Positions 29,863 to 48,484 are shown, counted from the stretch's first letter. The stretch: 64,000 bases of DNA from Pirellulales bacterium (GCA_963841515.1 CAWJDB010000010.1:431237-495236); one strand, 5' to 3'. Notes: a model not told the origin generated them from the sequence alone. Program-made: numbers and translations.

Positions 29863-29863
29863 T

Positions 29864-30559: not shown

Positions 30560-30699
30560 GGTTGTTCTCCTCACGTGTGCGATGCTCAGGATGCAAACCG
30601 AATCAGCCGTTGCAATACGGCGCGCTTGGGCGGCGCGTGGCGGCGGTATTATACCGATTGCAGAAGCCGCCCACGGGTTCGCAACTTGCATGCCGGCCA

Positions 30700-31188: not shown

Positions 31189-31259
31189 AAGTCCAAGAGC
31201 CGGATATTGGACATTCTACGCTCGCTCGGTCGCGTGCGGGTAGGTGCAACAGTACGCGC

Positions 31260-31301
31260 GGCAGGAGTCGAACCTGCAACCCCGGCTTCGTAGAATTTTC
31301 A
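31260..31301 (-). repeat. Partial copy (3' 42 nt, anticodon stem to acceptor) of tRNA-Arg(ACG); direct repeat of 48410..48452
   Basis: acgcgcggcaggagtcgaacctgcaaccccggcttcgtag is identical, apart from one indel, to the 3' part of the tRNA at 48410..48484. Confidence 0.7.
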
Positions 31302-31450
31302 CGCCGAACGCGGAGACCGGCGCTTTTCCCTACGAATTCTCGGGATGTTAGCAACTATGACCTTGCCTCGCCAACGATTAGAGATTGCCGGGATCGCATT
31401 AATGAATTCGGAGGCCGAGATTACTCCCGGCCTCCGGTCGTCATAAACCA

Positions 31451-32551
31451 CTACAACAAATTGACCACACGGTCGGCCAAACCCTTCTCGCCCAGGACCA
31501 CGTTGAGCTTGCCGCTCGCCGCGACACGCTCCAGGACTTCCAGCTCCCGTAGTCGCATGAGCGTCGGGTTGTCGGCCAACAGCCGGGCGGTATTCGCCTG
31601 ACTGCGCATGGCCGCCGTCTCCTCGCGGCGAACGATCAAGTTGGCCTCGGCAGCCTTCTTGGCCTCGGTCACCTTGTTCATCAGGTCCTTCATGTCGCCC
31701 GGCAGGATGACGTCGCGGACGCCCACCGACACGACCGCCAGACCCAACTCGCCGGCGCAACGGCGGACCGCTTCCTCAAACTCGCCGGTGACCACGTCCT
31801 TGTCGGTCAAGAACGAGTCGAGATCGCGAGCCGCCACGACGGCGCGCAACGCCAACTGAGCCTCTCGGTACAGCGACTGCATTGCGCCCTCGGCCACCGT
31901 GACCGACTGCCGCGCATCAGTCACTCGGTAGGTGACGACGGCGTTCATCCGCAGCGTCACCTTGTCGGCGGTCATGATTTCCTGACCGGCGACGTCCAGG
32001 GTCTGCTCGCGGAGGTCGACGTCGACCACTTTTGCGTCGGCCACGCCGCGCCACCAGGCATAGTCGCCCGGGGTAAGCGTTTCGACGTATTCGCCGTCCT
32101 GGAAGGCAACGCCCACGTGGCACCGCGGAACCGAGCAGACGTCGAGCACCTGCGCGGCATGCGGGCTGCGGACAATCACCTTGAAGTCCGGATGCTGGAA
32201 CCGAACTTCGCGGGCGTCGACGACCTCGATGCGCACCTCCTTAACGCCGGTCCAGTACGCATACAGACCCGGCGGCAGGAGGTGGCTGAAGCGACCGTCG
32301 ATCCACACCAGCGCACGCTGGTAGTCCTTTAGGTCGACGACTTCAGCGCGATCGGCTAGGGCGCCGCTCTTGACGATCATGTCGAGCTTTTCGTGCTGGA
32401 GCCACGGAGTGCGCTGCGACACGACGTCGACCTTGACATTCCAGAGCGGGTCAAACAGCCAATGCCGGCCGGCGCCGAGCACGCCGCGGAACTCGCCGTC
32501 GCGGAAGTACAGACCGACTTCGTAAGTGTGGATGTGAATTCGCTTGAACAT
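31451..32551 (-). CDS. SPFH/band-7 (slipin-like) domain protein
   Basis: 366-aa intact ORF starting MFKRIHIHTYEVGLYFRDGEF, with a C-terminal coiled-coil. Confidence 0.65.
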   Translation of the reverse strand: MFKRIHIHTYEVGLYFRDGEFRGVLGAGRHWLFDPLWNVKVDVVSQRTPWLQHEKLDMIVKSGALADRAEVVDLKDYQRALVWIDGRFSHLLPPGLYAYWTGVKEVRIEVVDAREVRFQHPDFKVIVRSPHAAQVLDVCSVPRCHVGVAFQDGEYVETLTPGDYAWWRGVADAKVVDVDLREQTLDVAGQEIMTADKVTLRMNAVVTYRVTDARQSVTVAEGAMQSLYREAQLALRAVVAARDLDSFLTDKDVVTGEFEEAVRRCAGELGLAVVSVGVRDVILPGDMKDLMNKVTEAKKAAEANLIVRREETAAMRSQANTARLLADNPTLMRLRELEVLERVAASGKLNVVLGEKGLADRVVNLL

Positions 32552-32950
32552 GATGGTCGTACCTCCTTTCCTGGAATGTGCGGCGGTTGCCGCAGGAAGA
32601 TCAGGACGATGTGCGTATTCAAATGGTTCGGCGTTGAGCCAAAAAAACCCTCAGGCAACGGAACGAATGACCGATCACGCCTCCGCGCACGGAGTGCTGT
32701 TTGAGCAGTCACGGCCGCAGCGTCGTCCACAGGCTTCCGCCATGTGCATCGCACAGCCTGAGGCCGCGCGACGCCTTCCGGTTTACCGCTTGTTCGTGAC
32801 GCTGCGCAGCGTAAGCGCGGAATCCACGCACTGCATAGCGCCGGTATGCGTTGCCGAAGCGTCATCGCCTCGCCGAAGCGAGAACGACGACGCGCGGCCA
32901 ACCCATCATTCGTCCGTTGCCCTTGGGGTTGCTGGTGCGAGCTTGCGCTC

Positions 32951-33028
32951 GCGGCGGTACGGGAGTCGAACCCGTGACAGCCAGGTTACGAGCCTGGTGC
33001 TCTATCCACTGAGCTAACCTTGGTGGCG
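32951..33028 (-). tRNA. tRNA-Thr(CGT)-like; acceptor stem imperfect (possible pseudo-tRNA)
   Basis: D arm GCTC/GAGC, anticodon arm CCAGG-CTCGTAA-CCTGG, T arm ACGGG-TTCGACT-CCCGT. Only 3-4 of 7 acceptor pairs. Confidence 0.4.
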
Positions 33029-33147
33029 GACGACAATCGCCTTTGCTCGATCCCATGTCCGGAACGCGCGACGCTAACCATGTCACTGAAGCGTGCGCAC
33101 CGCTGGGCCCGGCAACCCTCGACCTTGCTTGAAGCTGCTTGAAAAAA

Positions 33148-33218
33148 GACGCTGACAGGAGTCGAACCTGTTTCAAGCTGCTTTGTAGGCAGCCGCCTCG
33201 CCGTCAGGCTCCAGCGTC
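33148..33218 (-). tRNA. tRNA with anticodon ACA (Cys-type, unusual A34)
   Basis: Perfect acceptor GACGCTG/CAGCGTC, anticodon arm GCTGC-CTACAAA-GCAGC, T arm ACAGG-TTCGACT-CCTGT. Confidence 0.55.
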
Positions 33219-33226
33219 AATAAAAT

Positions 33227-33298
33227 GCCCTCGCCAGGAATCGAACCTGGTCTTCAACCTTCGCACGGTTGCGTGCTGGTCCGGCACACTCCGAGGAC
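33227..33298 (-). tRNA. tRNA-Arg(GCG)
   Basis: Acceptor GTCCTCG/CGAGGGC, D stem GTGT/GCAC, anticodon arm CAACC-GTGCGAA-GGTTG, T loop TTCGATT. Confidence 0.6.
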
Positions 33299-33303
33299 TC
33301 AGT

Positions 33304-33375
33304 ACCCAGTAGAGGAATTGAACCCCTTCTTCGACGTTCGAAGCGTCGCGTGCGATTCCGGCACACTCACCGGGC
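33304..33375 (-). tRNA. tRNA-Arg(TCG)
   Basis: Anticodon arm CGACG-CTTCGAA-CGTCG, T loop TTCAATT, acceptor GCCCGGT/ACTGGGT. Confidence 0.6.
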
Positions 33376-33381
33376 GAAAGC

Positions 33382-33453
33382 GTCTCGACTAGGATTCGAA
33401 CCTAGACCCGCCGCTTAGGACGCGGCTGTGCGTTCCCGTAACGCTTCCGAGAC
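33382..33453 (-). tRNA. tRNA-Arg(CCT)
   Basis: Acceptor GTCTCGG/TCGAGAC, D stem GCGT/ACGC, anticodon arm GCCGC-GTCCTAA-GCGGC, T arm CTAGG-TTCGAAT-CCTAG. Confidence 0.65.
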
Positions 33454-33459
33454 TCAAGG

Positions 33460-33530
33460 GCCGGCGATAGGATTCGAACCTACATTGGGCTCATTACAAA
33501 TGAGCTGCTTCCCCATCAAGCCACGCCGGC
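33460..33530 (-). tRNA. tRNA-Thr(TGT)
   Basis: Perfect cloverleaf: acceptor GCCGGCG/CGCCGGC, D GCTT/AAGC, anticodon GCTCA-TTTGTAA-TGAGC, T GTAGG-TTCGAAT-CCTAT. Confidence 0.8.
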
Positions 33531-33539
33531 ATAGGAAGC

Positions 33540-33608
33540 AGGCCCGCCAGGATTTGAACCCGGTGCGTCAGTTTTGGAGGCTGACTGCTCTCCCAGGAGC
33601 ACGGACCT
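33540..33608 (-). tRNA. tRNA-like gene with 9-nt anticodon loop (CCTCCAAAA); identity unclear
   Basis: Acceptor AGGTCCG/CGGGCCT, D arm GCTC-CTGGGA-GAGC, stem GTCAG/CTGAC, T arm CCGGG-TTCAAAT-CCTGG. Confidence 0.4.
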
Positions 33609-33646
33609 GTAAAAGCACCCGGGCGGCCGACCCGGCGCCGATCAAA

Positions 33647-34237
33647 TCACTTCTGCAATTCCACGTTCCAGTACGCCTCGCTGATGAACTTCGACCAACT
33701 CTCAAGACGAACCTGCTGATCGGCGTACACCGGCCTCCACGTTGGACACGTCGGCGCCTTCTTGAGGTTCATGTCCGCCTGCTTCGGCGTCCGGTCGGCC
33801 TTACGCTTATTGCAGGCAATGCAGGCGAGAACGCAGTTCGTCCAGCTCGAAACGACTCCCCGAGCGCGAGGAACCACGTGGTCGATCGTGAGCTCTTCGC
33901 CGCCCGGGTTGACGCCGCAATACTGGTACTGAAAGCGATCTCGCTTATAAATGTTCCGCCGACCGAACGTCACCGCTCTGATCGGCAATCGATCGAAACC
34001 CGTGCGCGTGATGACTTCCGGCACGCGCAACCGGAAGTTAACGCCGCTCATGAACGGAGCTCCGTCCCGCGGTCGCAGCCGCGACCAATCGTCCCACGAG
34101 AACGTCTGGTAATCGGCCGCGTCGACGACGCGCAGCATCTTTCCACAACAGCACGAGCGCACGCGCTGTGGTCGCGACGTGCACGGGCTGCCAGTTCTTG
34201 TTCAGAACGAGCACAGGTTGTTGTAGTGAAGTCATAG
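33647..34237 (-). pseudogene. HNH endonuclease embedded in the tRNA array; frameshift near 34140
   Basis: N-terminus MTSLQQPVLVLNKNWQPVHVATTARALVLL in 34038..34334. HNH core YQYCGV...LTIDHVVPRARGG..CVLACIACNKRKADR in 33647..34162. Confidence 0.65.
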
Positions 34238-34249
34238 CTACTCCCATGC

Positions 34250-34337
34250 GGAATGGGCAGGATTCGAACCTGCAAGGCTGTTGAAGGCTCGGCCGGCTTC
34301 CAAGTGGGGTTTCGTCGCCAAGTCGATTTGCCATTCC
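34250..34337 (-). tRNA. Class II (long variable arm, 88 nt) tRNA; anticodon not resolved (Leu/Ser-type)
   Basis: Perfect acceptor GGAATGG/CCATTCC, T arm GCAGG-TTCGAAT-CCTGC. Confidence 0.5.
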
Positions 34338-34348
34338 GTGTTGTCAGC

Positions 34349-34419
34349 CGCCCGCCGATGATTCGAACATCGCCTCACGATTTAGAAGATCGTCGTGCGT
34401 TCCACCACACTCGCGAGCG
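34349..34419 (-). tRNA. tRNA-Arg(TCT)
   Basis: Acceptor CGCTCGC/GCGGGCG, D GTGT/GCAC, anticodon ACGAT-CTTCTAA-ATCGT, T CGATG-TTCGAAT-CATCG. Confidence 0.75.
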
Positions 34420-34423
34420 CAGG

Positions 34424-34496
34424 GTGACCGAGCGGACTCGAACCGCCTCATACCTGGTTCACAGCCAGGCCCCTCGACCACTTCGGGATCGGTCAC
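34424..34496 (-). tRNA. tRNA-His(GTG)
   Basis: Acceptor GTGACCG/CGGTCAC, discriminator C, anticodon CCTGG-CTGTGAA-CCAGG, T loop TTCGAGT. Confidence 0.7.
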
Positions 34497-34499
34497 AGC

Positions 34500-34584
34500 G
34501 GAAGGCATGGGATTTGAACCCACACGGCTATTACGCCGCACGGTTTAGCAAACCGGCCCGACAAACCGTATTCGGCTACCTTCC
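34500..34584 (-). tRNA. tRNA-Ser(GCT), class II
   Basis: 85 nt. Acceptor GGAAGGT/GCCTTCC, anticodon CGGT-TTGCTAA-ACCG, variable arm CGGC-GTAATA-GCCG, T GTGGG-TTCAAAT-CCCAT. Confidence 0.7.
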
Positions 34585-34592
34585 GTTCGAGT

Positions 34593-34662
34593 GGAGCGCC
34601 GGGGAATCGAACCCCGATTTCCTGAGTGCAAACCAGGCGTCGTCCCGTTGGACCAGCGTCCC
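34593..34662 (-). tRNA. tRNA-Ala(TGC) with G3:U70
   Basis: Anticodon CCTGG-TTTGCAC-TCAGG, T CGGGG-TTCGATT-CCCCG. Short D loop and one acceptor mismatch. Confidence 0.55.
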
Positions 34663-34675
34663 GTACTTTTGAGTG

Positions 34676-34746
34676 GAGGATACCGGTCTCGAACCGGTGA
34701 CCTACAGACTGCCAGGCGAGTCGCTCACCCAACTGAGCTAATCCCC
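34676..34746 (-). tRNA. tRNA-like with 8-nt anticodon loop CGCCTGGC (GGC/Ala-like?)
   Basis: Acceptor GGGGATT/TATCCTC, D GCTC-AGTTGGGT-GAGC, stem GACT/AGTC, T ACCGG-TTCGAGA-CCGGT. Confidence 0.4.
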
Positions 34747-34751
34747 CGACA

Positions 34752-34821
34752 GGCCCAAGCGAGAATCGAACTCGCACCACCGCACTACCAATGCGGTGCT
34801 CTGCCACTGAGCTATCAGGCC
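34752..34821 (-). tRNA. tRNA-Thr(GGT)
   Basis: D GCTC-AGTGGCA-GAGC, anticodon CCGCA-TTGGTAG-TGCGG, T GCGAG-TTCGATT-CTCGC. Confidence 0.75.
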
Positions 34822-34825
34822 GTGG

Positions 34826-34894
34826 GGGGACATGGGAGTCGAACCCAATGTTTCAAGCTTATGAGGCTTCCGTGAAACCGTTTCACTCGTCCCC
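34826..34894 (-). tRNA. tRNA-Met(CAT)-type
   Basis: Acceptor GGGGACG/TGTCCCC, anticodon AAGC-CTCATAA-GCTT, T loop TTCGACT. The D arm is short. Confidence 0.55.
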
Positions 34895-34900
34895 GTCAGT

Positions 34901-34971
34901 AGTCCCTGCTGGAATCGAACCAGCTGTCTTCTCCGTGTCATGGAGACGCCGTGCCGGTGGGCCAAGGGACT
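34901..34971 (-). tRNA. tRNA-Val(GAC)
   Basis: Perfect acceptor AGTCCCT/AGGGACT, anticodon TCTCC-ATGACAC-GGAGA, T GCTGG-TTCGATT-CCAGC. Confidence 0.75.
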
Positions 34972-34980
34972 ACACGAGTG

Positions 34981-35054
34981 GTCGGGAGAGGGCTTCGAAC
35001 CTCCAAAATCACCGCGCTCTTGACGCGATCGCTTTTCCAGTTTGCGTACCCGAC
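34981..35054 (-). tRNA. tRNA-like; anticodon loop TCAAGAG (AAG with C33?) uncertain
   Basis: Acceptor GTCGGGT/TCCCGAC (6 of 7 pairs), palindromic stem CGCG/CGCG, T loop TTCGAAG. Confidence 0.35.
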
Positions 35055-35060
35055 CGAAGT

Positions 35061-35128
35061 AGCTAGCCCCGGAGTTGAACCGAGCGCGCCGAGCTTATGG
35101 GGCTCAAGTGGGCCAACCTGCGCTAGCA
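35061..35128 (-). tRNA. tRNA(CAT)-like with C33 and a compact D arm
   Basis: Anticodon TGAGC-CCCATAA-GCTCG, variable GCGCG, T CTCGG-TTCAACT-CCGGG, palindromic acceptor GCTAGC. Confidence 0.45.
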
Positions 35129-35130
35129 AT

Positions 35131-35202
35131 GACCCAAGCGGGATTCGAACCCGCGATTCCCGCCTTGAGAGGGCGGCGACTACTCCGCAAGTCCACTGGG
35201 CC
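35131..35202 (-). tRNA. tRNA-Glu(CTC)
   Basis: Acceptor GGCCCAG/TTGGGTC, anticodon CCGCC-CTCTCAA-GGCGG, T GCGGG-TTCGAAT-CCCGC. Confidence 0.7.
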
Positions 35203-35210
35203 ATATAAGT

Positions 35211-35297
35211 GAGACGTGAAGGAATCGAACCTCGCGTCGCCACCCCGCTGTTTAGTGACTCGTGTTCTACAGACACGGCCGCGAGGGAACGCCTCTC
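35211..35297 (-). tRNA. tRNA-Tyr(GTA), class II; acceptor with two mismatches
   Basis: 87 nt. Anticodon CGTGT-CTGTAGA-ACACG. D region TTCCC..GG and T arm GAGG-TTCGATT-CCTTC resemble bacterial tRNA-Tyr. Confidence 0.55.
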
Positions 35298-35304
35298 GTC
35301 GAGT

Positions 35305-35379
35305 GCCAAGGGCGGGAGTCGAGCCCGCGGAGTCACGAAGGTTTGAGCTTCGCCGCTTTCCCTGTTGCGTACCTTGGCA
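35305..35379 (-). tRNA. Class I tRNA with anticodon CAA (Leu codon UUG; unusual because Leu tRNAs are normally class II)
   Basis: Perfect acceptor GCCAAGG/CCTTGGC, anticodon CGAAG-CTCAAAC-CTTCG, T GCGGG-CTCGACT-CCCGC. Confidence 0.55.
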
Positions 35380-35385
35380 GCAAGC

Positions 35386-35459
35386 GCCCCCGACGCGATT
35401 TGAACGCGCGATCTCCTGCGTGACAGGCAGGCGTCCACTCCGGGCTGGACCACGAGGGC
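35386..35459 (-). tRNA. tRNA-Asp(GTC)
   Basis: D GTCC-AGCCCGGAGT-GGAC, anticodon CCTGC-CTGTCAC-GCAGG, T loop TTCAAAT. Confidence 0.75.
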
Positions 35460-35465
35460 AATAGT

Positions 35466-35540
35466 ACCGGCGGCAGGATTCGCTCTCTGCACTGTTCTCG
35501 TTCTAAGCGAGACGCCTCCTTCCGTTGGGCTACGCCGGCT
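35466..35540 (-). tRNA. Class I tRNA-like with anticodon TAG (Leu codon CUA) and an aberrant 10-nt T loop (AGAGCGAATC)
   Basis: Acceptor GCCGGCG/CGCCGGT, anticodon TCTCG-CTTAGAA-CGAGA. Confidence 0.45.
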
Positions 35541-35545
35541 TAAGT

Positions 35546-35617
35546 CGTCCCGAGTGGACTCGAACCACTGATCGTCTCCTTGTAAGGGAGCTGCCTTTGC
35601 CGCTAGGCCACGGGACG
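35546..35617 (-). tRNA. tRNA-Val(TAC)
   Basis: Perfect acceptor CGTCCCG/CGGGACG, anticodon CTCC-CTTACAA-GGAG, T AGTGG-TTCGAGT-CCACT. Confidence 0.7.
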
Positions 35618-35623
35618 TAAGGC

Positions 35624-35709
35624 GGAAGCGGTGAGACTCGAACTCACAAGCGGGTATAAGCCGCCAGCCGTTTTCAAGACGGTTTCCTCAGCCATTCGGA
35701 TCACTTCCG
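35624..35709 (-). tRNA. tRNA-Ser(TGA), class II
   Basis: 86 nt. Acceptor GGAAGTG/CGCTTCC, anticodon CCGT-CTTGAAA-ACGG, T GTGAG-TTCGAGT-CTCAC. Confidence 0.65.
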
Positions 35710-35714
35710 TAAGC

Positions 35715-35785
35715 AGCGGCGGTCGGTATCGAGCCGACTCCAACTGCTTCAAAGGCAGTCATGCTGACCTTTACACCACGCCGCA
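35715..35785 (-). tRNA. tRNA-Gln(TTG)
   Basis: Anticodon ACTGC-CTTTGAA-GCAGT, T GTCGG-CTCGATA-CCGAC, acceptor GCGGCG/CGCCGC. Confidence 0.65.
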
Positions 35786-35792
35786 CCAAACA

Positions 35793-35861
35793 GGCTGAGC
35801 GCCGAATCGAACGGCGTCCGACTGGTTCAGAGCCAGTCGTGCGACCACTACACCAGGGGCC
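35793..35861 (-). tRNA. tRNA-Gln(CTG)-like with defective acceptor stem (pseudo-tRNA or indel error)
   Basis: Anticodon ACTGG-CTCTGAA-CCAGT, T GCCG-TTCGATT-CGGC. The 5' GGCCCCT and 3' GCTCAGCC ends do not pair. Confidence 0.35.
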
Positions 35862-35864
35862 AAT

Positions 35865-35934
35865 ACGGGTGCGCGGAATTGAACCGCGGCTGTCAGTTTG
35901 GAAGACTCGCCGTGCTGCCGCTACACCACACCCG
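35865..35934 (-). tRNA. tRNA-Trp(CCA)-like; the 3' strand of the anticodon stem is scrambled
   Basis: Acceptor GCGGGTG/CACCCGT, D GTGT/GCAC, loop TTCCAAA after GAGTC, T CGCGG-TTCAATT-CCGCG. Confidence 0.4.
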
Positions 35935-35942
35935 CAGAAGCG

Positions 35943-36025
35943 GAAGCGGCAGGAGTTGAACCTGCAAGGCAGTTACGCTCGACTGTTTTCGAAACAGCTG
36001 CCGTCGCCAATCGGCTGGCGCTTCC
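35943..36025 (-). tRNA. tRNA-Ser(CGA), class II
   Basis: Perfect acceptor GGAAGCG/CGCTTCC, anticodon GCTGT-TTCGAAA-ACAGT, T GCAGG-TTCAACT-CCTGC. Confidence 0.65.
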
Positions 36026-36032
36026 ATGAAGC

Positions 36033-36108
36033 TGCGGAGGCTGGGATCGAACCAGCGCACGAACGTGTTTAACAGACACGCGCAACTACCAGCAGTTGCC
36101 CCTCCGCA
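36033..36108 (-). tRNA. tRNA-Asn(GTT)
   Basis: D CAAC-TGCTGGTA-GTTG, anticodon CGTGT-CTGTTAA-ACACG, T GCTGG-TTCGATC-CCAGC. Confidence 0.7.
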
Positions 36109-36115
36109 AAGGAGT

Positions 36116-36188
36116 CTGCGCGGTCGGATTTGAACCGACGATCTCGACGCCCCGAACGTCGCGGGATGCCCAACTTCCCCACGCGCAG
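36116..36188 (-). tRNA. tRNA-Pro(CGG)
   Basis: Perfect acceptor CTGCGCG/CGCGCAG, D GGGA/TCCC, anticodon CGACG-TTCGGGG-CGTCG, T GTCGG-TTCAAAT-CCGAC. Confidence 0.75.
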
Positions 36189-36197
36189 TCAAACGAA

Positions 36198-36267
36198 GCA
36201 TCCGGCGGGTTACGATCCCGCACCTCCACCTTGGCAAAGTAGCGTGCAACCACTACACCACGGACGC
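36198..36267 (-). tRNA. tRNA-Gly(GCC) with unusual T loop ATCGTAA
   Basis: Acceptor GCGTCCG/CGGATGC, D GTGT/GCAC, anticodon CTACT-TTGCCAA-GGTGG (two G-U pairs). Confidence 0.55.
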
Positions 36268-36298
36268 AGTTTTGGCTTGTCAAATTGTCAAAGACCAA

Positions 36299-36370
36299 AG
36301 GATCGGGTCAGAATCGCTCGTGACGTTGCGACGGTACGAGCGTCGCGTCTTACTACTAGACGACAGATCC
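36299..36370 (-). tRNA. tRNA-Thr(CGT)-like with variant T loop CGAGCGATTC
   Basis: D GTCT-AGTAGTA-AGAC, anticodon CGACG-CTCGTAC-CGTCG, acceptor GGATCTG/CCGATCC (one mismatch). Confidence 0.45.
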
Positions 36371-36381
36371 AGGTTTGCAGT

Positions 36382-36452
36382 GGGGCTGGTGAGAGTCGAA
36401 CTCACAACGTCCTGGTTAAAAGCCAGGTGCTTGGCCTTTCAGCTTCAACCCC
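36382..36452 (-). tRNA. tRNA-Lys(TTT)
   Basis: Acceptor GGGGTTG/CAGCCCC, anticodon CCTGG-CTTTTAA-CCAGG, T GTGAG-TTCGACT-CTCAC. Confidence 0.7.
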
Positions 36453-36461
36453 ATGTCAAGT

Positions 36462-36534
36462 TGGCGGCCTGGGAATCGAACCCAGATCGTCGAGTTAATA
36501 AGACCCAACAGGTCAAGTGAGACCGTCGCCGCCC
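36462..36534 (-). tRNA. tRNA-like, anticodon probably TAT (Ile AUA-type) in loop CTTATTA; 1:72 mismatch
   Basis: Stem TGGGT/ACTCG with two G-U pairs, T CTGGG-TTCGATT-CCCAG. Confidence 0.4.
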
Positions 36535-36537
36535 AAT

Positions 36538-36610
36538 GGCTTCGGCGAGATTCGCGCCTCGCACCAAATCGATTAAAAGTCGAGTATGCTGCCGTTGACA
36601 CCACGAAGCC
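36538..36610 (-). tRNA. tRNA-Lys(TTT)-like with 8-nt T loop GCGCGAAT
   Basis: Perfect acceptor GGCTTCG/CGAAGCC, anticodon TCGA-CTTTTAA-TCGA. Confidence 0.5.
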
Positions 36611-36669
36611 GATTCAGGCTCGCGACGTCGCGTTTCATTCGAAGTTGCATATCGTTTCTCCTAACAAGT

Positions 36670-36740
36670 GGTAGCCCTGCGAATCGAACGCAGCGCAACT
36701 CGCTTATCAGGCGGATTTGGGCAACCAGCCCTCGACTACC
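36670..36740 (-). tRNA. tRNA-Ile(GAT)
   Basis: Anticodon loop CTGATAA, T CTGCG-TTCGATT-CGCAG, 3' end GGCTACC-A resembles bacterial tRNA-Ile. Confidence 0.65.
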
Positions 36741-36754
36741 GTCGTCGTGTATCA

Positions 36755-36860
36755 GTCGGGCGCCTCGGGGTCGAACCGCCAGTATTCAATTTGTTGGCTC
36801 CTGCTCCCATGGCTCACCGTGCTCCCATCTGCACCTCCGCCCGATTACAAGTCAGCATGG
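36755..36860 (-). other. Unresolved spacer with a T-loop-like motif (GGCGGTTCGACCCCG); possibly a degenerate or indel-damaged class II tRNA
   Basis: No consistent cloverleaf could be drawn. Confidence 0.2.
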
Positions 36861-36865
36861 CAAGT

Positions 36866-36939
36866 ACCCTGTGGGGGATTCGAACCCGCCTCCTGCGGCT
36901 TGAAAGGCCGCCATCCTAAAACCAGTAGACCAACAGGGC
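36866..36939 (-). tRNA. tRNA-Glu(TTC)
   Basis: Anticodon GCGGC-CTTTCAA-GCCGC. The D region GTCT...AGGA matches the bacterial tRNA-Glu pattern. Confidence 0.65.
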
Positions 36940-36999
36940 GTGTTAAGTCGTTTCGTGTTTCTTAAGTTGAGTTTTTGCGCGCACCGCAAGCGCATTAGT

Positions 37000-37070
37000 G
37001 GGCTGGGAGGCGCTCGAATCCTCGTCTGTGGTTCTTCAGACCGCCGCTAGACCGTCTCAGCTACCAGCCC
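37000..37070 (-). tRNA. tRNA-Phe(GAA); first gene of the array
   Basis: Perfect acceptor GGGCTGG/CCAGCCC, D GCT/AGC, anticodon GCGGT-CTGAAGA-ACCAC, T loop with a 2-nt insertion (ATTCGAGCG). Confidence 0.6.
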
Positions 37071-37087
37071 GTCATCAAGGCAGGGGC

Positions 37088-37128
37088 GCGTGCGACGAGG
37101 CCAACAAAAAAGGCCCGGCGTCACGTTG
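37088..37128 (-). terminator. Rho-independent terminator (minus strand) upstream of the tRNA array; terminates the DUF1080 gene
   Basis: Hairpin AAGGCCTGGCGTCA-ACG-TGACGCCGGGCCTT followed by TTTTTTG on the minus strand. Confidence 0.6.
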
Positions 37129-37527
37129 ACGCCAGGCCTTGGTGGCTCACTTAAGAGTTTGGCCGAGCGTCATAGGCGCCTTCTATCGTTGGCGGGCGCA
37201 TAACCGGACTGTTCGTTCGCCCCTTGGGTGAACGGCAAGCCGGCGCTCCCTTGCGGCAAACTCGCCGCCGCGAGCACTGAGCGTATGAGACTCGACCGAA
37301 ACATGGATGGCACTCCTCCTAATGAAATATACCCGGCAGATCGCTTTGCGTTTCTCTGATAACTATAGATGTCGGATAATAACCGAAGTTCGCGCAGTCT
37401 TTTCGGAAAAACTGGGAATTTGGAAACTTTCTTCGATTACCCAAATTGCTCGCTGGCGCCGGCTGAACCCGTACTTATCGGTAAGCGAACCCGCTCTCGC
37501 TATCCTGCGAGGCTATCCGAAACCTGT

Positions 37528-38142: not shown

Positions 38143-38323
38143 GACATTAGCCTCTGGGGGTTTTGATCGGGATCGATTCGCTCGACACGTACGGCGCTTG
38201 TAGGCATGATCGCGTCGGTTACGCCAAGGCGCCATAGTTAAAAAATGGACGGGCGCCCGGCCAGCAGAGCCCGCGTTGCCCCCCGGCGTGCAGACTGATT
38301 GCAGGCTGTGGCGCCCATCCAGG

Positions 38324-39682: not shown

Positions 39683-39843
39683 GACCAGCACCTCTTCGAG
39701 GCTTCCCGGAAGCCTCATTTTAGCCGTCCGTTCCCGGATCCAAGTCGCGTTAGCGTCGCGCAGTGCTTAAAAAACGGCCCGGCGCCGAAATAGGGCGCCG
39801 GGCCGGAGACTGTACGTCACTTCAATCGAACGACGATCCGCTC

Positions 39844-41025: not shown

Positions 41026-41195
41026 GAGTTGCACCTCCACGAATGAGAAAAGGGCTGAAATATCGTTCACGCTGCGTAAGCGGTGTTGCCGTCGCTTTCC
41101 TAAATCGCTGCCGCGGACGACCGTCGCGTCGTTCCCCTCCTGCAACACATCCTTCTAGCCTCTCAACCGGTTCAAATCCCCCATTCCGAAAACGC

Positions 41196-42716
41196 TCAAC
41201 GAGCGCCTCGTCGCCGCAGCGCCAAGCCGGCGCCAGAGACGCTGGCAAGCGCCATCGACAGGGTCGCTGGCTCTGGCACGGCGGCCGCGACCGTGGGCGT
41301 GGTTCCAAATTGCGCTTTGAACACCGCAAGATCGGCGGCGTTTACTGTACCATTTTTGTCGGCGTCGCCGTTGGCGTTGGTCGTCTGCCCCGTTAGTCCG
41401 AAGCCGCGCTGCCAGATCAAGAAATCAGCGCCGGAAACTGCGCCCACGCCGTCGAAATTGGCGTTCGGCGTTGCATTGAAGAATTGCACGGCCCGACTCG
41501 CCGCAGGATCAACCACCGTCCAGTAGGGCGTGGTCGTCGCCGGGTTGAAGGGAGCGAACGAAAGGCCGTCGATTTTGATCTGCGACAAGCGCACCGCCTC
41601 GCCGGTGGGGTCGCCGGTTTCGAACCAAAATCCGTTGCCCGGGGCGCCCAGTTCCAGCGTGTCCGTTCCAATCTGGAAATTGACAATGCCGTACTGGCCG
41701 TTCATTTGATGCGTCGCGTCCCAGTGCAGAGAGTTGGCGCCAGCGGCGGCGCCGTAGTCGAGAACCAGCGTCGCGTCGCCGGCTGTGCCGAGAAACTCGA
41801 CGCTGTCGCTGTGACCGTTCAAATCGAGCTTGTTGGTCAAGATCGAGTTCGCGCCGCGGCTCCAAACGTCGTTCGACCCGCCGAGCTTGTTGTCGCCGAA
41901 CAGCCTGAGGACCGATCCGTTGTAGAGATTGATTTCTCCCCATCCTTCCGTATCAATGTCGGACGATAATGCCGCGTTGGGCCCAAGGTTTACTGTCATT
42001 TGATTGCGAATGCCGAAGCCTGTCCCTCCAGAACCATCTTGAGGAAACAGGGCGACGCCCGCATTGAAGGTGACGATCGGAAGCGTGTCGTTGCCGGTGA
42101 TAAATCGCGCGTCCGGCGCGGGGCCGGCGGTGAGCGTCACATTGCCGTTGAAGACGACTCGCGTGCCGGCGTAGGCTTGCACGGTGAGCGCCTCGACGTC
42201 GCCATTGAAAGTTAAACTGTGGCTGCCATTGGCTTCGATGTATGACTGGGTAACGATATTCGGATTGATCACCGAGGGCACGCTGGGGCCGCCAAAGGCA
42301 TCGCCGCCGTTCGCGTAGACGCCCCATTCATCGATGAACGGATCAAATGGATCGATCTGCCCGCCGTTAAGCGGATCGCCGTTGCCGCTGACGTCCGAGG
42401 GGATCGCAAGCGTGATGGTCCCCGTCCCGTTGACGGTGACGGGACCGTTGTTGTTCAAGTGCATCCGATACCACGTGACGTTATTGGAACCGAGATTGAG
42501 CACCTTGTTGAAATTGCCGCCGCCCGTCAGGAGCGCGCCCGTCGTGGCGTCAGGAACCAGTTGCGGCGACCAACTGGTGGAATCCAGAGCGTCGCTGGAT
42601 AATTCGCCCTCGTGGCCCAGCCAAACGACCTCCGGCGGAGCCTGAGCTTGCGCCGCCGCCACCGCAACTTGCCAAAGGAATCCCGCGACGATCAGACGTC
42701 GGAACGTGCATGACAT
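41196..42716 (-). CDS. PEP-CTERM sorting-domain protein with dockerin-like repeat
   Basis: Signal peptide, GDADKNGTVNAADLAVFKAQFG, C-terminal VPEPATLSMALASVSGAGLALRRRGAR. Confidence 0.6.
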   Translation of the reverse strand: MSCTFRRLIVAGFLWQVAVAAAQAQAPPEVVWLGHEGELSSDALDSTSWSPQLVPDATTGALLTGGGNFNKVLNLGSNNVTWYRMHLNNNGPVTVNGTGTITLAIPSDVSGNGDPLNGGQIDPFDPFIDEWGVYANGGDAFGGPSVPSVINPNIVTQSYIEANGSHSLTFNGDVEALTVQAYAGTRVVFNGNVTLTAGPAPDARFITGNDTLPIVTFNAGVALFPQDGSGGTGFGIRNQMTVNLGPNAALSSDIDTEGWGEINLYNGSVLRLFGDNKLGGSNDVWSRGANSILTNKLDLNGHSDSVEFLGTAGDATLVLDYGAAAGANSLHWDATHQMNGQYGIVNFQIGTDTLELGAPGNGFWFETGDPTGEAVRLSQIKIDGLSFAPFNPATTTPYWTVVDPAASRAVQFFNATPNANFDGVGAVSGADFLIWQRGFGLTGQTTNANGDADKNGTVNAADLAVFKAQFGTTPTVAAAVPEPATLSMALASVSGAGLALRRRGAR

Positions 42717-43410
42717 GGCGCCGCCCTCTGTTTCGGATGATTGCGAGAAGCGGCCACCTGCCGAGACGAATAACCGCGACCGCCTTTACGTGAATCGAAA
42801 TTGCGATGAGTGGATCGACGAGCCGTAGTGAGAGGACGCCGCACGATCCTCCTAACCGCCAAGGTCGACTGTACCAAAAATGGTCTATTCGTCAAGCTTT
42901 CGTACTGAGAATTCGGGAATTCGCACTGTCCCGGCCTCGTTTTCTGCTAATCCGTCGGTCAAATGCCAGCCCACGCCTGGAGCTCGGGTCGCTGCCGTAA
43001 TTGGGATAGGGCGTTCGGCATGCACAAAGGAACCCTCAAAGGAGACTTCTCGCTGATCCCGACAGGTAGTGAATGCAAGTCGCTCAGGGAGATGACTTTA
43101 AGTTGGCTTTCGGCGTTTCCAATGTCGTCGTAACTGATGTGATGCCGTTGGCGGTGGAGTCACGGCTGCGTGGGGAGAAAAATCCCACTGCCAGCTCGCC
43201 ACCGGCTGTCGGCTTCAGCGAGAAGTCTCCTAAAGCCATGGGTATCACTTCAAAAACTCCTGCTCGTCGACTTGCCTCCTCGATCCATCACGAAAGCAAA
43301 CGTCTGGGCGGGTGTGGGTCGATAAAAATTGTCAGTTCGATTTGCCGCCAACCTGAGGGCGGCGCAGAATTGGCTACAGCGGTCGTCGGTGCTTTTCCGG
43401 ATGGGAACGA

Positions 43411-44508
43411 ATGAAACACCTGCAGATCTCCAGCTTGCTTGAGCGTCGCATTCTGAAGGGCGACTACGCCAAGACCGGGCTTCCAGCCGAGCGTGATTTG
43501 GCCGATGAAATCGGCGTTAGTCGCGTAACGCTCCGCAAGGCCCTCGACGACTTAGGACGCAAGGGGCTAGTCGAACGCTCCCCCAATCGGCGACTGGCGC
43601 TAGCCGCCAGGGTCGGATCGGATTCGTTCGGACCCGAAATTGCCTTTCTGACGCCGTCAATCGCGCCCGACTCTTTTTCGCCTGACCTTCAGCAGTGGCT
43701 GGCGATGGCGGAGCACGTCGCCCGACAGCACAAGGCGCGCATCCGTGTGCTCAATTACAAGCATTGGGACGATCCCGTCCTCACCGAATCTCTGCGCACC
43801 TATCCCGGAGTGCTGCTGGTGACGAGCGCCGAGCCGATTCCGCTCTGGACTTCCAAGCTTCTTGCGCAAGCGGACGGGCTGGTCGTGCTCTCCGAAGACC
43901 TGACGCACTTGGGCATACCATCCGTCGTGCTCTTTCCGCCGCGGTGCACCAAAACGATGCTCGACCGATTGGCACAGCTCAGCCATAAGCGCATCGACTG
44001 TCTCAACGTGCAGGGCCATAACTCGATTACCGTGGCGCGCATCGACGCGTGGCGAGGCTGGTCGGCGTCGAAAGGGGGAACCGGCGAGTTATTTGACGAT
44101 CCCTGCCCCGGCGATTTCAGTATTTTTGAATGGGGCGTCCAGAGCGCCAAACGCTGGCTTGAGCAGACTTCGCCCGAAACAACCGCTGTCATGTGCGTTA
44201 CCTTGCCTGGGGCGCTGGGCGCCTTACGAGCGGCCAGGGATAGCGGGCTTGAAGTTGGCAAGGACCTCTCGGTCTGTACGATCGACAGTGAAGGCCTGGG
44301 CAAATATCTTGGCCCCTCGATAACTTCCTTCGAGCGGCCCAATGCGCAACCTTATCTCTCGATTTGCTTCGACTGGATTGTCGGCGGCGGAAAAAAAGAG
44401 AAGTGGGACCGCCCGCTCTTGATTGAACCGCGAAATTTGCGGTTGTTTCAAGGCGACTCCACCGGGCCCGTCGCCAAAAAACGCGCTAAGAGACGCTCGA
44501 CGCGTTAG
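43411..44508 (+). CDS. Transcriptional regulator: GntR-type N-terminal HTH fused to a LacI/periplasmic-binding-protein-like sugar-binding domain
   Basis: LPAERDLADEIGVSRVTLRKALDDL, then a ~300-aa PBP-like region. Confidence 0.55.
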   Translation: MKHLQISSLLERRILKGDYAKTGLPAERDLADEIGVSRVTLRKALDDLGRKGLVERSPNRRLALAARVGSDSFGPEIAFLTPSIAPDSFSPDLQQWLAMAEHVARQHKARIRVLNYKHWDDPVLTESLRTYPGVLLVTSAEPIPLWTSKLLAQADGLVVLSEDLTHLGIPSVVLFPPRCTKTMLDRLAQLSHKRIDCLNVQGHNSITVARIDAWRGWSASKGGTGELFDDPCPGDFSIFEWGVQSAKRWLEQTSPETTAVMCVTLPGALGALRAARDSGLEVGKDLSVCTIDSEGLGKYLGPSITSFERPNAQPYLSICFDWIVGGGKKEKWDRPLLIEPRNLRLFQGDSTGPVAKKRAKRRSTR

Positions 44509-46589
44509 ACGCCGGGGTGATCGCGGCGACGGCGGCGGCGGCGGCCTGCCTGGCGTCCAGGGAAAGACCAACCTCGCCTCTTTGGCTGGCGAAGTGTGCG
44601 CGGGCGTCGGCGACGATGCGATCTGATTCGTTAAGATGACGCAGCCACCCGAAGTACAGCATGCCCAAAGCGCCAGCGACGATCAGCAGACACACGCCGC
44701 TCGTTGTCCAACTGTGAATCACCGTCAGCATTGGCGTCAAGATGATCATCACTTGGAACAGTAACGCCACAGGCAGCGCAGCGATGTCGCGCCGGTGCTC
44801 TGCCGTCACCCGGGCCCGGAGCCACGTAGGCAGCTCTCGCGAATACGGCTTCCATAAGCCGAACGGAAGCGTCGACTGGTAGAAACGGCGCAGCACCGCG
44901 TCGGGCGTGGGCGCCGAGGCCAACGAGCCCGCAATTCCCGCGGCCAGCCCCACGGCGCCCAGCAAAGGCAGCAACCACGATTCTTGCTGCAGGAAGCTCC
45001 AAGTCGCCCCCAGCCACGGCGCCGCGAAGCGGACCAGGACGGCCGCCGCGACCCCCGCGAGGGTTCCGGCGGTATAGCCGACGCCGTTGAAACGACGCCA
45101 ATAAAGCGGCAGGAGTTGCGGCATCATCATGCCGCTGCCCAGTCCCATGATGATCCAGGCCCAAACGTCATTGATGCTTGGCACCGAAAAGGCGAACAAG
45201 AAGCCAGCCGTCACCATGGAGCCGATGAACAGCCAGCTCACGATCATCATCTCCGATACTGTCGCCGCCGAGCGGAAATGTTTCTGATAGATATCGTGGA
45301 CGAAGAACCCCGCCGATTGATTGACCCACGCCCCAAATCCCGCCATGGCGGCCGCGATTAACGACACCACCATCAAGCTGCGAAATCCGGGGGGGATTTT
45401 CAGCAGCAAGACGGCGGGCATGATGCGCTCGGGATTGATGTTGCCGTGGGAGCCCACCAGCAGCAGCTTGGTTTGCCACTGGTCGCCCAATATTTCGCGC
45501 AACTTCGCAGTGAAATCCGACGGGAAGGCTTCCGGGTGATTGGCGATTTTCGAGGTAATCGTCGCCCAATTCTGGTCAGACGCCGAAACGTGCGACTGCA
45601 CGACTTCGCCAGCCTCGCGGACCGCGGCGCCATCAGGGAAAAGCTGGTTCACCACTCCCAAACCCAGCACGGCGATGCCGACCATCATCGGCCAGCGGAA
45701 CGAAATGAGGCAAATCCATAGAAAGGTGAGTTTGCCGCAGTCGGCGTCGCTGCGTGCGGCGAAGTATTTGGGATCATCGCCGGCGCCCATGCCAAACAGG
45801 ATGTTGCGCAGCAGGTAGAGGCAAGCACAAAGCGCCAGCGATCGGTAGGGTTCGTAGCCCGCTGGCATGACGGCGTGGACCGTCGGCGCCGCGGCGGTCC
45901 AAGCGGGATTCATTGTCACCTTCCGCGCCAGATCTGCGAGCGACTCGACGGCCGAGGTTTGGTGCGCCTAAGACAATGATCGTAATCGCGGCCGCAATGA
46001 CGATTCCCATCTGTACCAGGTGGATGATCACGACCCCGTAGAATCCTGAGAACATCGAGTAAACGGTGGCGCTGACTACGAGTACTAGCGCGCAGGTGGC
46101 CGGCGAGAAGGGTACGAAGGTGGACAAGAAGAGCCCGATACCCTTCACCAAATAAGCGATCATCCCAGTGGTCACGACAATGCCCGCGAGGGCGCGCGCC
46201 GCCTGCGCCATTCGGCCAGCCGTGCCGTCGCCAAACCGAAAGATCATCCATTCGGCCCCGGTCAAACAACCGGAGCGGCGATGCCACTTGCCGGCCCATA
46301 GCATGGTGACCGCCAGCACGAGGACCGCTCCCCCGCGGAACTCGATGAAAAGCCCGCGCGGCCCGAGCAAATACAGGAACGACACGATGATCATCGTGCC
46401 GGCCAGGTCCCAGAAGTCCATCACGCCCGAGACGCCGAGCATCCACCAGGGCATCGACCGTCCGCCGATGAGGTATTGCTCCAGACTCGCCGAAGCCCGG
46501 CGCTTAAGATGGAAACCCAAGGTGACGATGACCGCCAGATATAGCGCGATGATCGCGTAGTCGATTCCATTGAGGTAGTTCTCGCCCAC
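44486..46589 (-). pseudogene. Sodium:solute symporter (SSF) family transporter; frameshift near 45930
   Basis: ORFs 45774..46589 (N-terminal TM helices) and 44486..45919 (rest). Multi-TM throughout. Confidence 0.55.
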
Positions 46590-46809
46590 GGCGACGCTTG
46601 CTCCCGGGCATGTGGCGGAACCGCCCAGACGTGGCGGCTCGAGACGGCGGCGATAGTTCGCGGCCGCCAGTCTTTCAGCATGGGGTAGGGACCGAACGAT
46701 GACAACGACCGAAATTAGGAATTGCCCGCTGCGGTTTTCTGGCGCCCTAAATGGTCCAAGTCTGGTACGTTTTGGGGCGTGCCGTGATCACTTCGCCATC
46801 GAGCCAATC

Positions 46810-48027
46810 ATGCATCTGTCCGCCCAAACCTCGCGATCCCGCCGCCGAACGCTGATTTGGCAAGCTGCAGGGGCATGTTGCCTAGCCGCGTGCGCATTGG
46901 TCGTTCGCGCCGGCGCCGAAGGGCGTGCGGCCATCAACTTGGTCAGCGATGGCGTCGTACCGGCGGACGACCCGATCGTCGGCGCTGATTACTATCCCTG
47001 GTACGGCGTCAAGCCGCGCCCAGTTGCCGACGATTGGCGAAATGTCCTGCGGCGTCGGCTCGTTCCGCCGCAAATGCCGGCGGCGGGGCTTTATCGATCG
47101 GATGATCAGGCCGTCGTCAAGAAGCACATCGACCAGAGTCGACGCGGAGGCATTGCTTTCTGGGCCGTAAGTTGGTGGGGTCCTCGCTCCGCGACCGACC
47201 GGGTGTTCCTCAACGCCATTGTTCCGCATCCCGACGCCGCGGACTTCCGATTCGCGGTGCTTTACGAGAGCACGGGCCGCCTTGGCGAGTACAAAAGTCC
47301 AAACTACGACAACTGGACCAGGGATCTGGCGTACCTTGCGGAGAATTATTTTCACCGTCCCAATTACCTGCGCATCAACGGACGGCCGGTCCTATTCGTC
47401 TACCTCACGCGGGTCTACTTCCGTGATCAGGGCGCCGAGGCCCTGAGACTTACGCGGGAGCAATTCAAGGACGTGTATTTGATTGGAGACGATGTCTTCG
47501 GGGCCGGCTATCGCGCGGAGTGGGCGCGACAATTCGACGCTGTAACAGTCTACGACGTGTACGGTCAATCGACGGCGATCCATCGAGCCACTTCCAAAGC
47601 CATCGAGACGCTTGCGGCAAACTACGCCGCCGCGCGCAAGACGGCCAATTCAGCAGGCGCCGCCTTCATTCCTACAATTGCTCCGGGCTACAACGATAGG
47701 GCTGTCCGCTCGGGGCACCACGGCACGGCGCGATATTTCGTCGATCAGCCAGACTCGCAAGAGGGCGACCTTTTTCGCGCTATGATTCGCGACGTGGCGG
47801 TCCCCAACCTCGACGATCGTGCGGGCCGGATGTTGATGGTGACAAGCTTCAATGAGTGGTACGAAGACACCCAAATCGAAGCGACGACCGGCCAGTCGAC
47901 GGCAACATTGACCGACGATTCGGACACCGGCCAAAAGCTAACCGGCGGCGACCGGTATGAAGACTACGGAACCCTGTACTTGGACATCCTTCGCGACGCC
48001 GTCGGCGACGACGGCCGCACGCCGTAG
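46810..48027 (+). CDS. GH99-like glycoside hydrolase (paralog of 38324..39682) with signal peptide
   Basis: GADYYPWYG...SFNEWYEDTQIE, collinear with the other copy. Confidence 0.45.
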   Translation: MHLSAQTSRSRRRTLIWQAAGACCLAACALVVRAGAEGRAAINLVSDGVVPADDPIVGADYYPWYGVKPRPVADDWRNVLRRRLVPPQMPAAGLYRSDDQAVVKKHIDQSRRGGIAFWAVSWWGPRSATDRVFLNAIVPHPDAADFRFAVLYESTGRLGEYKSPNYDNWTRDLAYLAENYFHRPNYLRINGRPVLFVYLTRVYFRDQGAEALRLTREQFKDVYLIGDDVFGAGYRAEWARQFDAVTVYDVYGQSTAIHRATSKAIETLAANYAAARKTANSAGAAFIPTIAPGYNDRAVRSGHHGTARYFVDQPDSQEGDLFRAMIRDVAVPNLDDRAGRMLMVTSFNEWYEDTQIEATTGQSTATLTDDSDTGQKLTGGDRYEDYGTLYLDILRDAVGDDGRTP

Positions 48028-48107
48028 CCGCCGAACGTAGACTGAAGTTCGTTCGAGGAGTTCTGGATGCAAACGTTCAACGATTCCCATTCGACTACTG
48101 CGGACAA

Positions 48108-48341
48108 ATGTCCCCGTGGTGCGAATTTTCCGCCCTCGGCTTCTATCTAACGAATCCTGCCGATGGCACGTACGTCCTGCGTAGTCCGCTCGTGAAGGAA
48201 ACGCCGATAACGCCACCCCGCGGAAAAATGTTTCGCATCGAAGCCATTCATAACTCACCGGACAATAAATTCATCCAATCGGCGGAGTTGAATGGGCGCC
48301 CGTTCAACCGCAAACGGTACATTTCGTGTTTGGTTCGGTGA
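48108..48341 (+). pseudogene. Possible C-terminal gene remnant next to tRNA-Arg (lower GC, protein-like composition)
   Basis: 77-aa ORF ..KMFRIEAIHNSPDNKFIQSAELNGRPFNRK. It lacks the Arg-rich shadow-ORF character. Confidence 0.2.
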
Positions 48342-48409
48342 AAAAACGCCGCACCGCCTAACGTCGGCAGGTGACAGAAACCCTTGTCCGGCGTGGACTT
48401 CGATCTACT

Positions 48410-48484
48410 ACGCGCGGCAGGAGTCGAACCTGCAACCCCGGGCTTCGTAGGCCCGTGCTCTATCCAGTTGAGCTACGCGCGCTC
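48410..48484 (-). tRNA. tRNA-Arg(ACG)
   Basis: GCGCGCG-TA-GCTC-AACTGGATA-GAGC-A-CGGGC-CTACGAA-GCCCG-GGGT-TGCAG-GTTCGAC-TCCTGC-CGCGCG. Confidence 0.8.

Follow-up and report, generated by a model that had tools for sequence, protein, structure and literature searches.

L-arrays are horizontally spread tRNA gene arrays with a conserved HNH gene, which have been described from phages as well as from several phyla, Planctomycetes among them (Santamaria-Gomez et al. 2021, PMC8421152). The criterion for a tRNA array unit is at least 20 tRNA genes at a density of at least two per kb, and such arrays have been found on an integrative conjugative element (ICE) (Tran et al. 2016, PMC4758250). In mycobacteria, one group of arrays is distributed among chromosomes, prophages, and plasmids (Morgado and Vicente 2018, PMC5966550). 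The ICE of Acidithiobacillus ferrooxidans, about 300 kb long, bears a tRNA array, as cited in PMC4758250. Here, we describe a tRNA array in a 64-kb stretch of DNA from a Pirellulales bacterium (GCA_963841515.1 CAWJDB010000010.1:431237-495236), referred to as the window. The array is part of a segment at 31294..48408, which is probably a genomic island that entered the Pirellulales chromosome by site-specific recombination into a tRNA-Arg(ACG) gene. All coordinates of the segment and its surroundings are positions in the window, and strands refer to the strand of the window.

The locus is of a known kind, a tRNA-targeted island with an L-type array. Its modest novelty lies in the Planctomycetes setting, the putative tRNA-Arg hotspot, and a widespread cassette of array, HNH, and SPFH genes that is common to a phage. 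The island resembles other tRNA-targeting islands in having an intact tRNA gene at one end and, at the opposite end, an orphan copy that starts at the anticodon loop and includes the 3′ end, in its atypical composition and metabolic cargo, and in the reuse of its target tRNA in relatives. Unlike autonomous tRNA-targeting elements, it contains no integrase, excisionase, or other mobility gene, and it has undergone an internal deletion, so that it appears to be a remnant or to depend on functions supplied in trans. The A. ferrooxidans ICE and the island are alike in carrying a tRNA array as cargo of an integrated mobile element. However, that ICE is large and conjugative and has mobility genes, whereas the island in the window is 17 kb long and lacks conjugation and integration genes. 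The array shares with L-arrays and tRNA array units the 29–34 co-oriented tRNAs, the embedded HNH gene of a mycobacteriophage and cyanophage family, the sporadic contexts, including phage, and a gene order that is kept despite insertions and deletions. It differs from the described L-arrays in that the window cassette and many of its metagenome relatives end with a conserved SPFH/Band 7 gene. By analogy, the cassette appears to match the horizontally spread L-arrays that add supernumerary tRNAs.

The island is delimited by a direct repeat, whose copies of 41 nt (31253..31293) and 42 nt (48409..48450) have the same orientation. The copies align over a 33-nt exact block, a 1-nt indel (GG versus GGG), and eight further identical bases, and their similarity is lost at once beyond either end. 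The 22-nt core of the repeat had no chance matches in 100 shuffles. In the orientation of the tRNA, the repeat opens with the first anticodon-loop base (C of CUACGAA) and closes with the discriminator base. The right copy constitutes the 3′ 42 nt of an intact tRNA-Arg(ACG) gene (48409..48482, − strand, identified by both ARAGORN and Rfam) and forms an attL-type junction. The left copy is an orphan tRNA-Arg 3′ half on the same strand and forms an attR-type junction. Read along the − strand, the intact tRNA-Arg(ACG) gene comes first, the segment follows on its 3′ side, and the orphan 3′ half comes last. ARAGORN identifies 30 tRNA genes in the window, all on the − strand, 29 of them at 33147..37070, and the remaining one is the lone tRNA-Arg(ACG), which is the best-scoring tRNA of the window in Rfam (66.1 bits, full length).

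The first-pass annotation of the window had recognized the repeat, its orientation, and its single indel correctly, but had placed the left copy 7 nt too high, at 31260..31301. Since the indel is located in a homopolymer run of G and frameshifts occur elsewhere in the window, it cannot be taken as divergence of the copies, and it may be an assembly error. The left copy does not belong to the array as a local tRNA duplication: it is located outside the cassette, which ends at 31409, and it matches the distant tRNA-Arg(ACG), an isoacceptor that is missing from the array. A second, more degenerate copy of the attachment site (att), which would point to tandem islands, was considered and dropped, as a scan of the whole window showed none.

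The inserted segment is 17,115 bp long and has a GC content of 0.601, compared with 0.654–0.672 in the flanks, and it has no counterpart between the same flanks in relatives. When the window is divided into 4-kb pieces, the GC content is at most 0.616 in the island and at least 0.640 in the host DNA. The tetranucleotide correlation to the host is at most 0.944 for pieces of the island and at least 0.962 for those of the host. The ranges do not overlap for either measure, and the composition step coincides with both copies of the repeat. The part of the island containing the array and that containing the glycan utilisation genes are each atypical in composition.

Homologues of the window proteins point to Pirellulales of the Lacipirellula type. 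The closest relative available is the Logan metagenome SRR8569141, in which the contigs L005 and L010 correspond to the two flanks of the island. L005 contains the right-flank gene (298 aa) and a secretin gene, and it stops inside tRNA-Arg(ACG). L010 starts with the 3′ end of tRNA-Arg, and about 120 nt further on it contains the Cys-rich, 231-aa, HhH, and 394-aa genes, in the order and spacing of the left flank of the window. The ends of the two contigs overlap by 15 nt, and merging them gives a perfect 74-nt tRNA-Arg(ACG). Therefore, both flanks of the window adjoin one tRNA-Arg in the SRR8569141 lineage. The acceptor strands of this tRNA (GCACCCG/CGGGTGT) pair with each other and display compensatory changes relative to those of the window (GCGCGCG/CGCGCGT).

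An uninterrupted site is present in the ENA contig L102, where an 848-aa CarboxypepD_reg-domain gene is followed by a 120-nt spacer, an intact tRNA-Arg(ACG), the right-flank gene, and the secretin gene. The 848-aa gene is 55% identical to a gene of contig L004 positioned next to the NlpC/391-aa block, and this homology indicates an ancestral link between the left and right neighbourhoods of the window. L004, from JGI sample 3300010051, is approximately 75% identical in DNA to the window and is syntenic with it over 8691..9411 and then 16934..28556. The same sample contains contig L103, in which the tRNA 5′ half with the anticodon loop (2885..2928) is located beside the right flank, and homology to the window ends at 48444, the 3′ edge of the loop. 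A degenerate tRNA 3′ half in L004 (15400..15427, 24 of 28 bases) is located beside the 848-aa-type gene and the left flank, and also ends at the anticodon loop; a match of this quality was equalled in 1 of 200 shuffles. The inner sides of L103 and L004 contain HicAB, an Xre regulator, and a PEP-CTERM/dockerin gene, none of which is common to the window, and the site contains no intact tRNA. The origin of L004 and L103 from one genome is an assumption.

The more distant relatives (L003 and L006–L009) have no tRNA at the corresponding place. A scan of the genome collection with the secretin yielded only distant relatives (59–65% identity), without the tRNA, and a first metagenome scan with the right-flank protein gave no matches. 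Exact searches with the proteins of the window itself matched no record. Comparison with relatives for an empty site, which the first-pass annotation had suggested as a check, found an uninterrupted site in L102 and, on two contigs of SRR8569141, both flanks, each with one of two complementary parts of a single tRNA-Arg. The relatives do not have the genes of the segment in this order. The island that had been suggested from the repeat alone is thus upheld by four independent lines: by the repeat boundaries, by the composition steps, by the flanks adjoining one tRNA-Arg in relatives, and by the same tRNA being broken at the same sublocation elsewhere. As judged from these sequences, the comparison shows the tRNA-Arg(ACG) gene beside the pilus/secretin operon as an apparent recurrent insertion hotspot in this Pirellulales lineage.

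We hypothesize that the crossover took place at the anticodon loop of tRNA-Arg(ACG). The element would have brought a copy of the tRNA part that starts at the anticodon loop and includes the 3′ end, and the gene would thereby have been rebuilt at 48409..48482, with the displaced original 3′ half becoming the orphan at 31253..31293. The sequence displays this geometry. Williams (2002, Nucleic Acids Res) reportedly distinguished sublocation classes of tRNA-targeting integrases, among them crossover at the anticodon loop, with the tRNA 3′ half provided by the attachment site of the element (attP). Because of the position of the crossover, the integrase was presumably of the tyrosine type, and its gene would have been lost later by deletion. 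Most likely, the island can no longer move, or can do so only if an integrase is provided in trans. The attP would have had to match the host tRNA over 42 nt, and the tRNA of SRR8569141 differs from that of the window at 6 of the 42 repeat positions. Therefore, the donor was probably a close relative, and the event would be younger than the split from the SRR8569141 lineage.

Several points weigh against site-specific integration into tRNA-Arg(ACG). No single contig of a close relative joins the exact flanks of the window across one tRNA, and the uninterrupted site of L102 has a different left neighbour than the window. The tRNA-Arg site of SRR8569141 is itself probably occupied by something rather than empty. 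In L005, the sequence breaks off exactly 30 nt beyond the first base of the anticodon loop; in L010, it begins exactly 30 nt short of a position located 3 nt beyond the end of the tRNA. Logan contigs are built as a k = 31 assembly, and breaks at 30 nt (k − 1) are the signature of a repeated 45-nt node, which here would begin at the anticodon loop and include 3 nt beyond the tRNA. Since the island contains no integrase or excisionase gene, the recombination mechanism is deduced from the geometry of the site only. The genes of the glycan cluster are of an ordinary planctomycete type, and the cluster could have arrived in the island separately. The assembly contains many frameshifts, which make the repeat indel, apparent pseudogenes, and odd anticodons unreliable.

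The cargo of the island is a mosaic of a 5.7-kb tRNA cassette and an 11-kb mannoside-type glycan utilisation cluster. The cassette is composed of tRNA-Phe, about 30 tRNAs, the HNH gene, more tRNAs, and the SPFH gene, and just 115 nt separate it from the orphan att copy. The array (32956..37070, − strand) starts with tRNA-Phe and contains 29 tRNAs identified by ARAGORN and five tRNA-like sequences identified by Rfam only. The 29 co-oriented ARAGORN tRNAs occupy 4.1 kb, and the resulting density of approximately seven tRNA genes per kb exceeds the criterion for an array unit. The HNH endonuclease gene is embedded in the array (− strand; Pfam HNH 6e-10), with a Pfam-assigned gene at 33647..34162 and a frameshifted span reaching to 34226. 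The SPFH/Band 7 gene (31451..32551, − strand; Pfam 2e-29) is the last gene of the cassette. A role of SPFH or other cargo genes in defence was considered and dropped, as PADLOC gave no matches beyond generic HNH similarity.

The HNH protein is 66% identical to a protein of the IMG/VR contig UViG_3300007072_000340 (L016; 94 kb, GC content 0.62). A tblastn comparison with this 198-aa protein aligns the window HNH gene in two pieces in different frames. In L016, an array of 36 tRNAs surrounds the HNH gene and is followed by an SPFH gene whose product is 72% identical in amino acids to that of the window. L016 is a phage contig, and it also encodes a large terminase (4e-89), a second HNH protein, thioredoxin, and a small serine recombinase. 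The HNH family is represented in 432 GenBank phage records, mainly of mycobacteriophages, all at less than 60% identity (30–41% among the best matches listed).

A metagenome scan with an HNH alignment as the query returned more than 540 confirmed matches, from which 80 loci were kept (L022–L101). The HNH proteins of these loci are approximately 59–83% identical, and the contigs range in GC content from 0.47 to 0.68. In most of the loci, the HNH gene is located inside an array of up to 41 tRNAs, and about twenty have an SPFH gene (66–82% identity) directly downstream. Six arrays (L016, L027, L056, L063, L066, and L080) contain 18–24 of the 29 window tRNAs in the same order, and two others (L095 and L059) contain 17 and 14, respectively, compared with a maximum of 12 in shuffles. 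DNA homology across the cassette loci has sharp limits: 37070, where tRNA-Phe starts, and 31409–31461, just past the SPFH gene. The neighbours of the cassettes are ordinary bacterial genes, including the planctomycete-typical DUF1559 and DUF1501, and no recurrent integrase or phage neighbour was found around the loci. The idea that the glycan cluster travels together with the cassette was dropped, as none of the fetched loci has it. The linkage of SPFH genes to arrays was not found in the full-text literature searched for SPFH.

As far as can be judged from sequence comparison, the cassette appears to circulate among chromosomes of the planctomycete type and also to have reached one large phage or more. 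The window would provide a boundary-resolved example from Planctomycetes of a long tRNA array that reaches a chromosome as cargo of an island in a tRNA gene. The gene order ties the window array to that of a large phage, consistent with tRNA arrays moving between phages and bacterial chromosomes. One cassette of array, HNH, and SPFH is very widespread in environmental metagenomes, which makes its function and spread worth testing. Current views are not overturned by these observations. It is a rather improbable extension of them that the cassette propagates itself among planctomycete chromosomes, islands, and large phages through homing-type copying by HNH, that SPFH is a functional partner of the spare tRNAs, for example against tRNA-cleaving toxins or under translational stress, and that the island is a satellite-like passenger that can be moved by a helper integrase recognizing the anticodon-loop site of tRNA-Arg.

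The resemblance to L016 raises the alternative that the island is a decayed prophage, in which a large temperate phage of the L016 type carrying the cassette integrated at tRNA-Arg, the rest of the phage was deleted or replaced, and the glycan cluster was acquired later. The cassette is collinear with that of the 94-kb terminase-bearing contig and close to the orphan att copy, the stump of a GH92 gene at the other end of the island shows deletions, and the same history has been proposed for mycobacterial arrays (PMC5966550). However, the island contains no further phage gene: no structural, packaging, or lysis genes were found by Pfam in its genes or in six-frame translations of its intergenic regions. 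Most homologous cassettes are located among ordinary bacterial genes, and neither phage genes nor integrases recur beside them. The 20 kb of L016 that were examined contain no tRNA-Arg-like attP, and their only recombinase is of the small serine type. The 29-nt core of the att site has no match in the viral collection, and a prophage origin does not account for the regulated sugar-utilisation genes that fill the 11 kb from the cassette to the tRNA. We therefore consider a decayed prophage unlikely.

It is also possible that no site-specific event took place, and that the orphan arose when tRNA-Arg was duplicated or rearranged locally, or through homologous or illegitimate recombination, with the 17 kb accumulated through unrelated events. 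The mosaic cargo and the absence of an integrase from the island fit such a history. So does the presence of the cassette in many unrelated contexts without duplication of a tRNA, as a duplicated tRNA 3′ half was found only in the window and in L096 (tRNA-Arg(TCT)) among 86 loci. It is nevertheless quite unlikely, since the duplicated stretch in the window has the anticodon loop and the tRNA 3′ end as its exact limits, another genome has this tRNA interrupted at the matching sublocation, and the change in composition coincides with both copies of the repeat.

An assembly artefact, in which the assembler placed within the chromosome contig a circular or foreign 17-kb molecule that has the 42-nt tRNA segment in common with it, agrees with the error-prone assembly (frameshifts in at least five conserved genes), the different GC content of the segment, and a bounding repeat of merely 42 nt, but is highly improbable. 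The indel errors point to long reads, by which the junctions would be bridged, and the relatives break independently at the same tRNA. Moreover, any element with exactly the tRNA 3′ half of this host has, by definition, this attP, so that little would change in the biological conclusion. None of these alternatives explains the boundaries at the anticodon loop, the composition steps, and the sites of the relatives together as well as integration of an island into tRNA-Arg(ACG).

The window array looks reduced compared with its relatives of 36–41 genes, and several of its members are missing or give weak Rfam matches. Its tRNA-Cys has the anticodon ACA, compared with GCA in related arrays, and one tRNA has an unreadable anticodon loop (33147..33218, 34673..34747). 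These oddities, including the empty positions, could be due to decay of the array or to assembly error. The end of the array in L096 is formed by tRNA-Arg(TCT) (2480..2552), and a 32-nt copy of its 3′ end (6512..6543) is located 4 kb away, just upstream of the HNH gene; the duplication may represent a small insertion into an array tRNA. Several loci contain an open reading frame (ORF) of 710–820 aa after the SPFH gene (L031, 14030..16363; L059, 11468..13939; L085, 8566..10980; L080, 14335..16473), which in L031 encodes cyclic-nucleotide-binding and 4Fe-4S domains. Genes of RlaP, from an RNA-repair pathway, occur near the arrays in two loci.

The glycan utilisation cluster is made up of two GH99-like genes, a GH92 remnant, a DUF1080 gene, a sodium:solute symporter (SSF), a GntR/periplasmic-binding-domain regulator, and two PEP-CTERM proteins. 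The DUF1080 gene (37528..38235, − strand; Pfam 7e-39) encodes a 3-keto-disaccharide hydrolase and is followed by the first gene for a GH99-like glycoside hydrolase (38324..39718, − strand; Pfam 2e-19). The genes of the two PEP-CTERM surface proteins, assigned by Pfam, are located at 39844..41148 and 41196..42716 on the − strand, and the second includes a dockerin-like stretch. The sugar regulator (43411..44508, + strand; Pfam) combines a GntR helix-turn-helix with a periplasmic-binding domain. The symporter gene (44486..46589, − strand) is split into two overlapping ORFs by a frameshift near 45774–45919, with the N- and C-terminal halves of the SSF profile matching separate ORFs. The second GH99-like gene is located at 46699..48027 (+ strand; Pfam 1e-18). 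The genes that the first-pass annotation had listed in the segment, from SPFH and the HNH gene within the array to DUF1080, the two GH99-like and two PEP-CTERM genes, the regulator, and the symporter, were all recovered by Pfam.

The GH92 remnant is an orphan C-terminal fragment of an alpha-mannosidase gene (48099..48340, + strand; profile positions 374–448 of 464), detected in a six-frame Pfam scan with an E-value of 2.7e-18. It ends 68 nt from tRNA-Arg and is the sole Pfam match in the six-frame translations of intergenic regions. The truncation of this gene indicates that an internal deletion occurred in the island. No recombinase or integrase domain was found by Pfam in the island genes, in six-frame translations of the island intergenic regions, or in the neighbouring genes, in agreement with the first reading of the segment as one with no visible integrase. 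Nor did Pfam find relaxase, coupling protein, or type IV secretion domains in the island genes. The only recombinases of the window are transposases of insertion sequences (IS) at 9.4–16.9 kb.

The left host flank (27458..31140) contains the 394-aa gene, the HhH (PolX-like) gene, the 231-aa conserved planctomycete gene, and the Cys-rich gene, whose start is approximately 110 nt from the orphan repeat; the same genes occur in the same order in L010. The right host flank (48795..51918) contains a 300-aa gene and the secretin gene of a pilus operon, in the same order beside tRNA-Arg as in L005 and L102. Both next to the island and towards the ends of the window, the genes are of housekeeping or pilus type. 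The HhH (HHH_8) and Cys-rich labels given earlier to the left flank hold, but the label DUF932 does not, as the 231-aa protein has no Pfam match even at E ≤ 1. A precomputed PF06067 match exists in a single distant relative of this protein. The break in synteny with L004 at approximately 28.6 kb suggested that the HhH, 231-aa, and Cys-rich genes could themselves form a mobile element. This idea was dropped, because the closer relative L010 keeps their order beside the tRNA 3′ end and the 231-aa family is widespread in planctomycetes.

Five genes of the window that are intact in relatives contain frameshifts: the FAD oxidoreductase gene (approximately 25189–25204), the HhH gene (within 28847..29716), the Cys-rich gene (31063–31072), the HNH gene (34128–34132), and the symporter gene (45774–45919). 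Since a core gene is among them, indel errors are likelier than decay, and the five genes are more likely to reflect errors of the assembly than to be pseudogenes.

A second insertion of low GC content (0.61) is present at 9412..16934 and is missing from the syntenic L004. It contains IS200-like Y1, IS66 (split), and DDE transposase genes. The insertion is located roughly between 42-nt direct repeats at 9564..9605 and 16522..16563, which are 86% identical. An unusual purine tract (GGGGAAAGGGGGGGAAAGGGGGGGGGAGGGGGGAAAGGGGA) at 9600..9645 directly follows the repeat copy at 9564..9605, beside the IS200-like gene.

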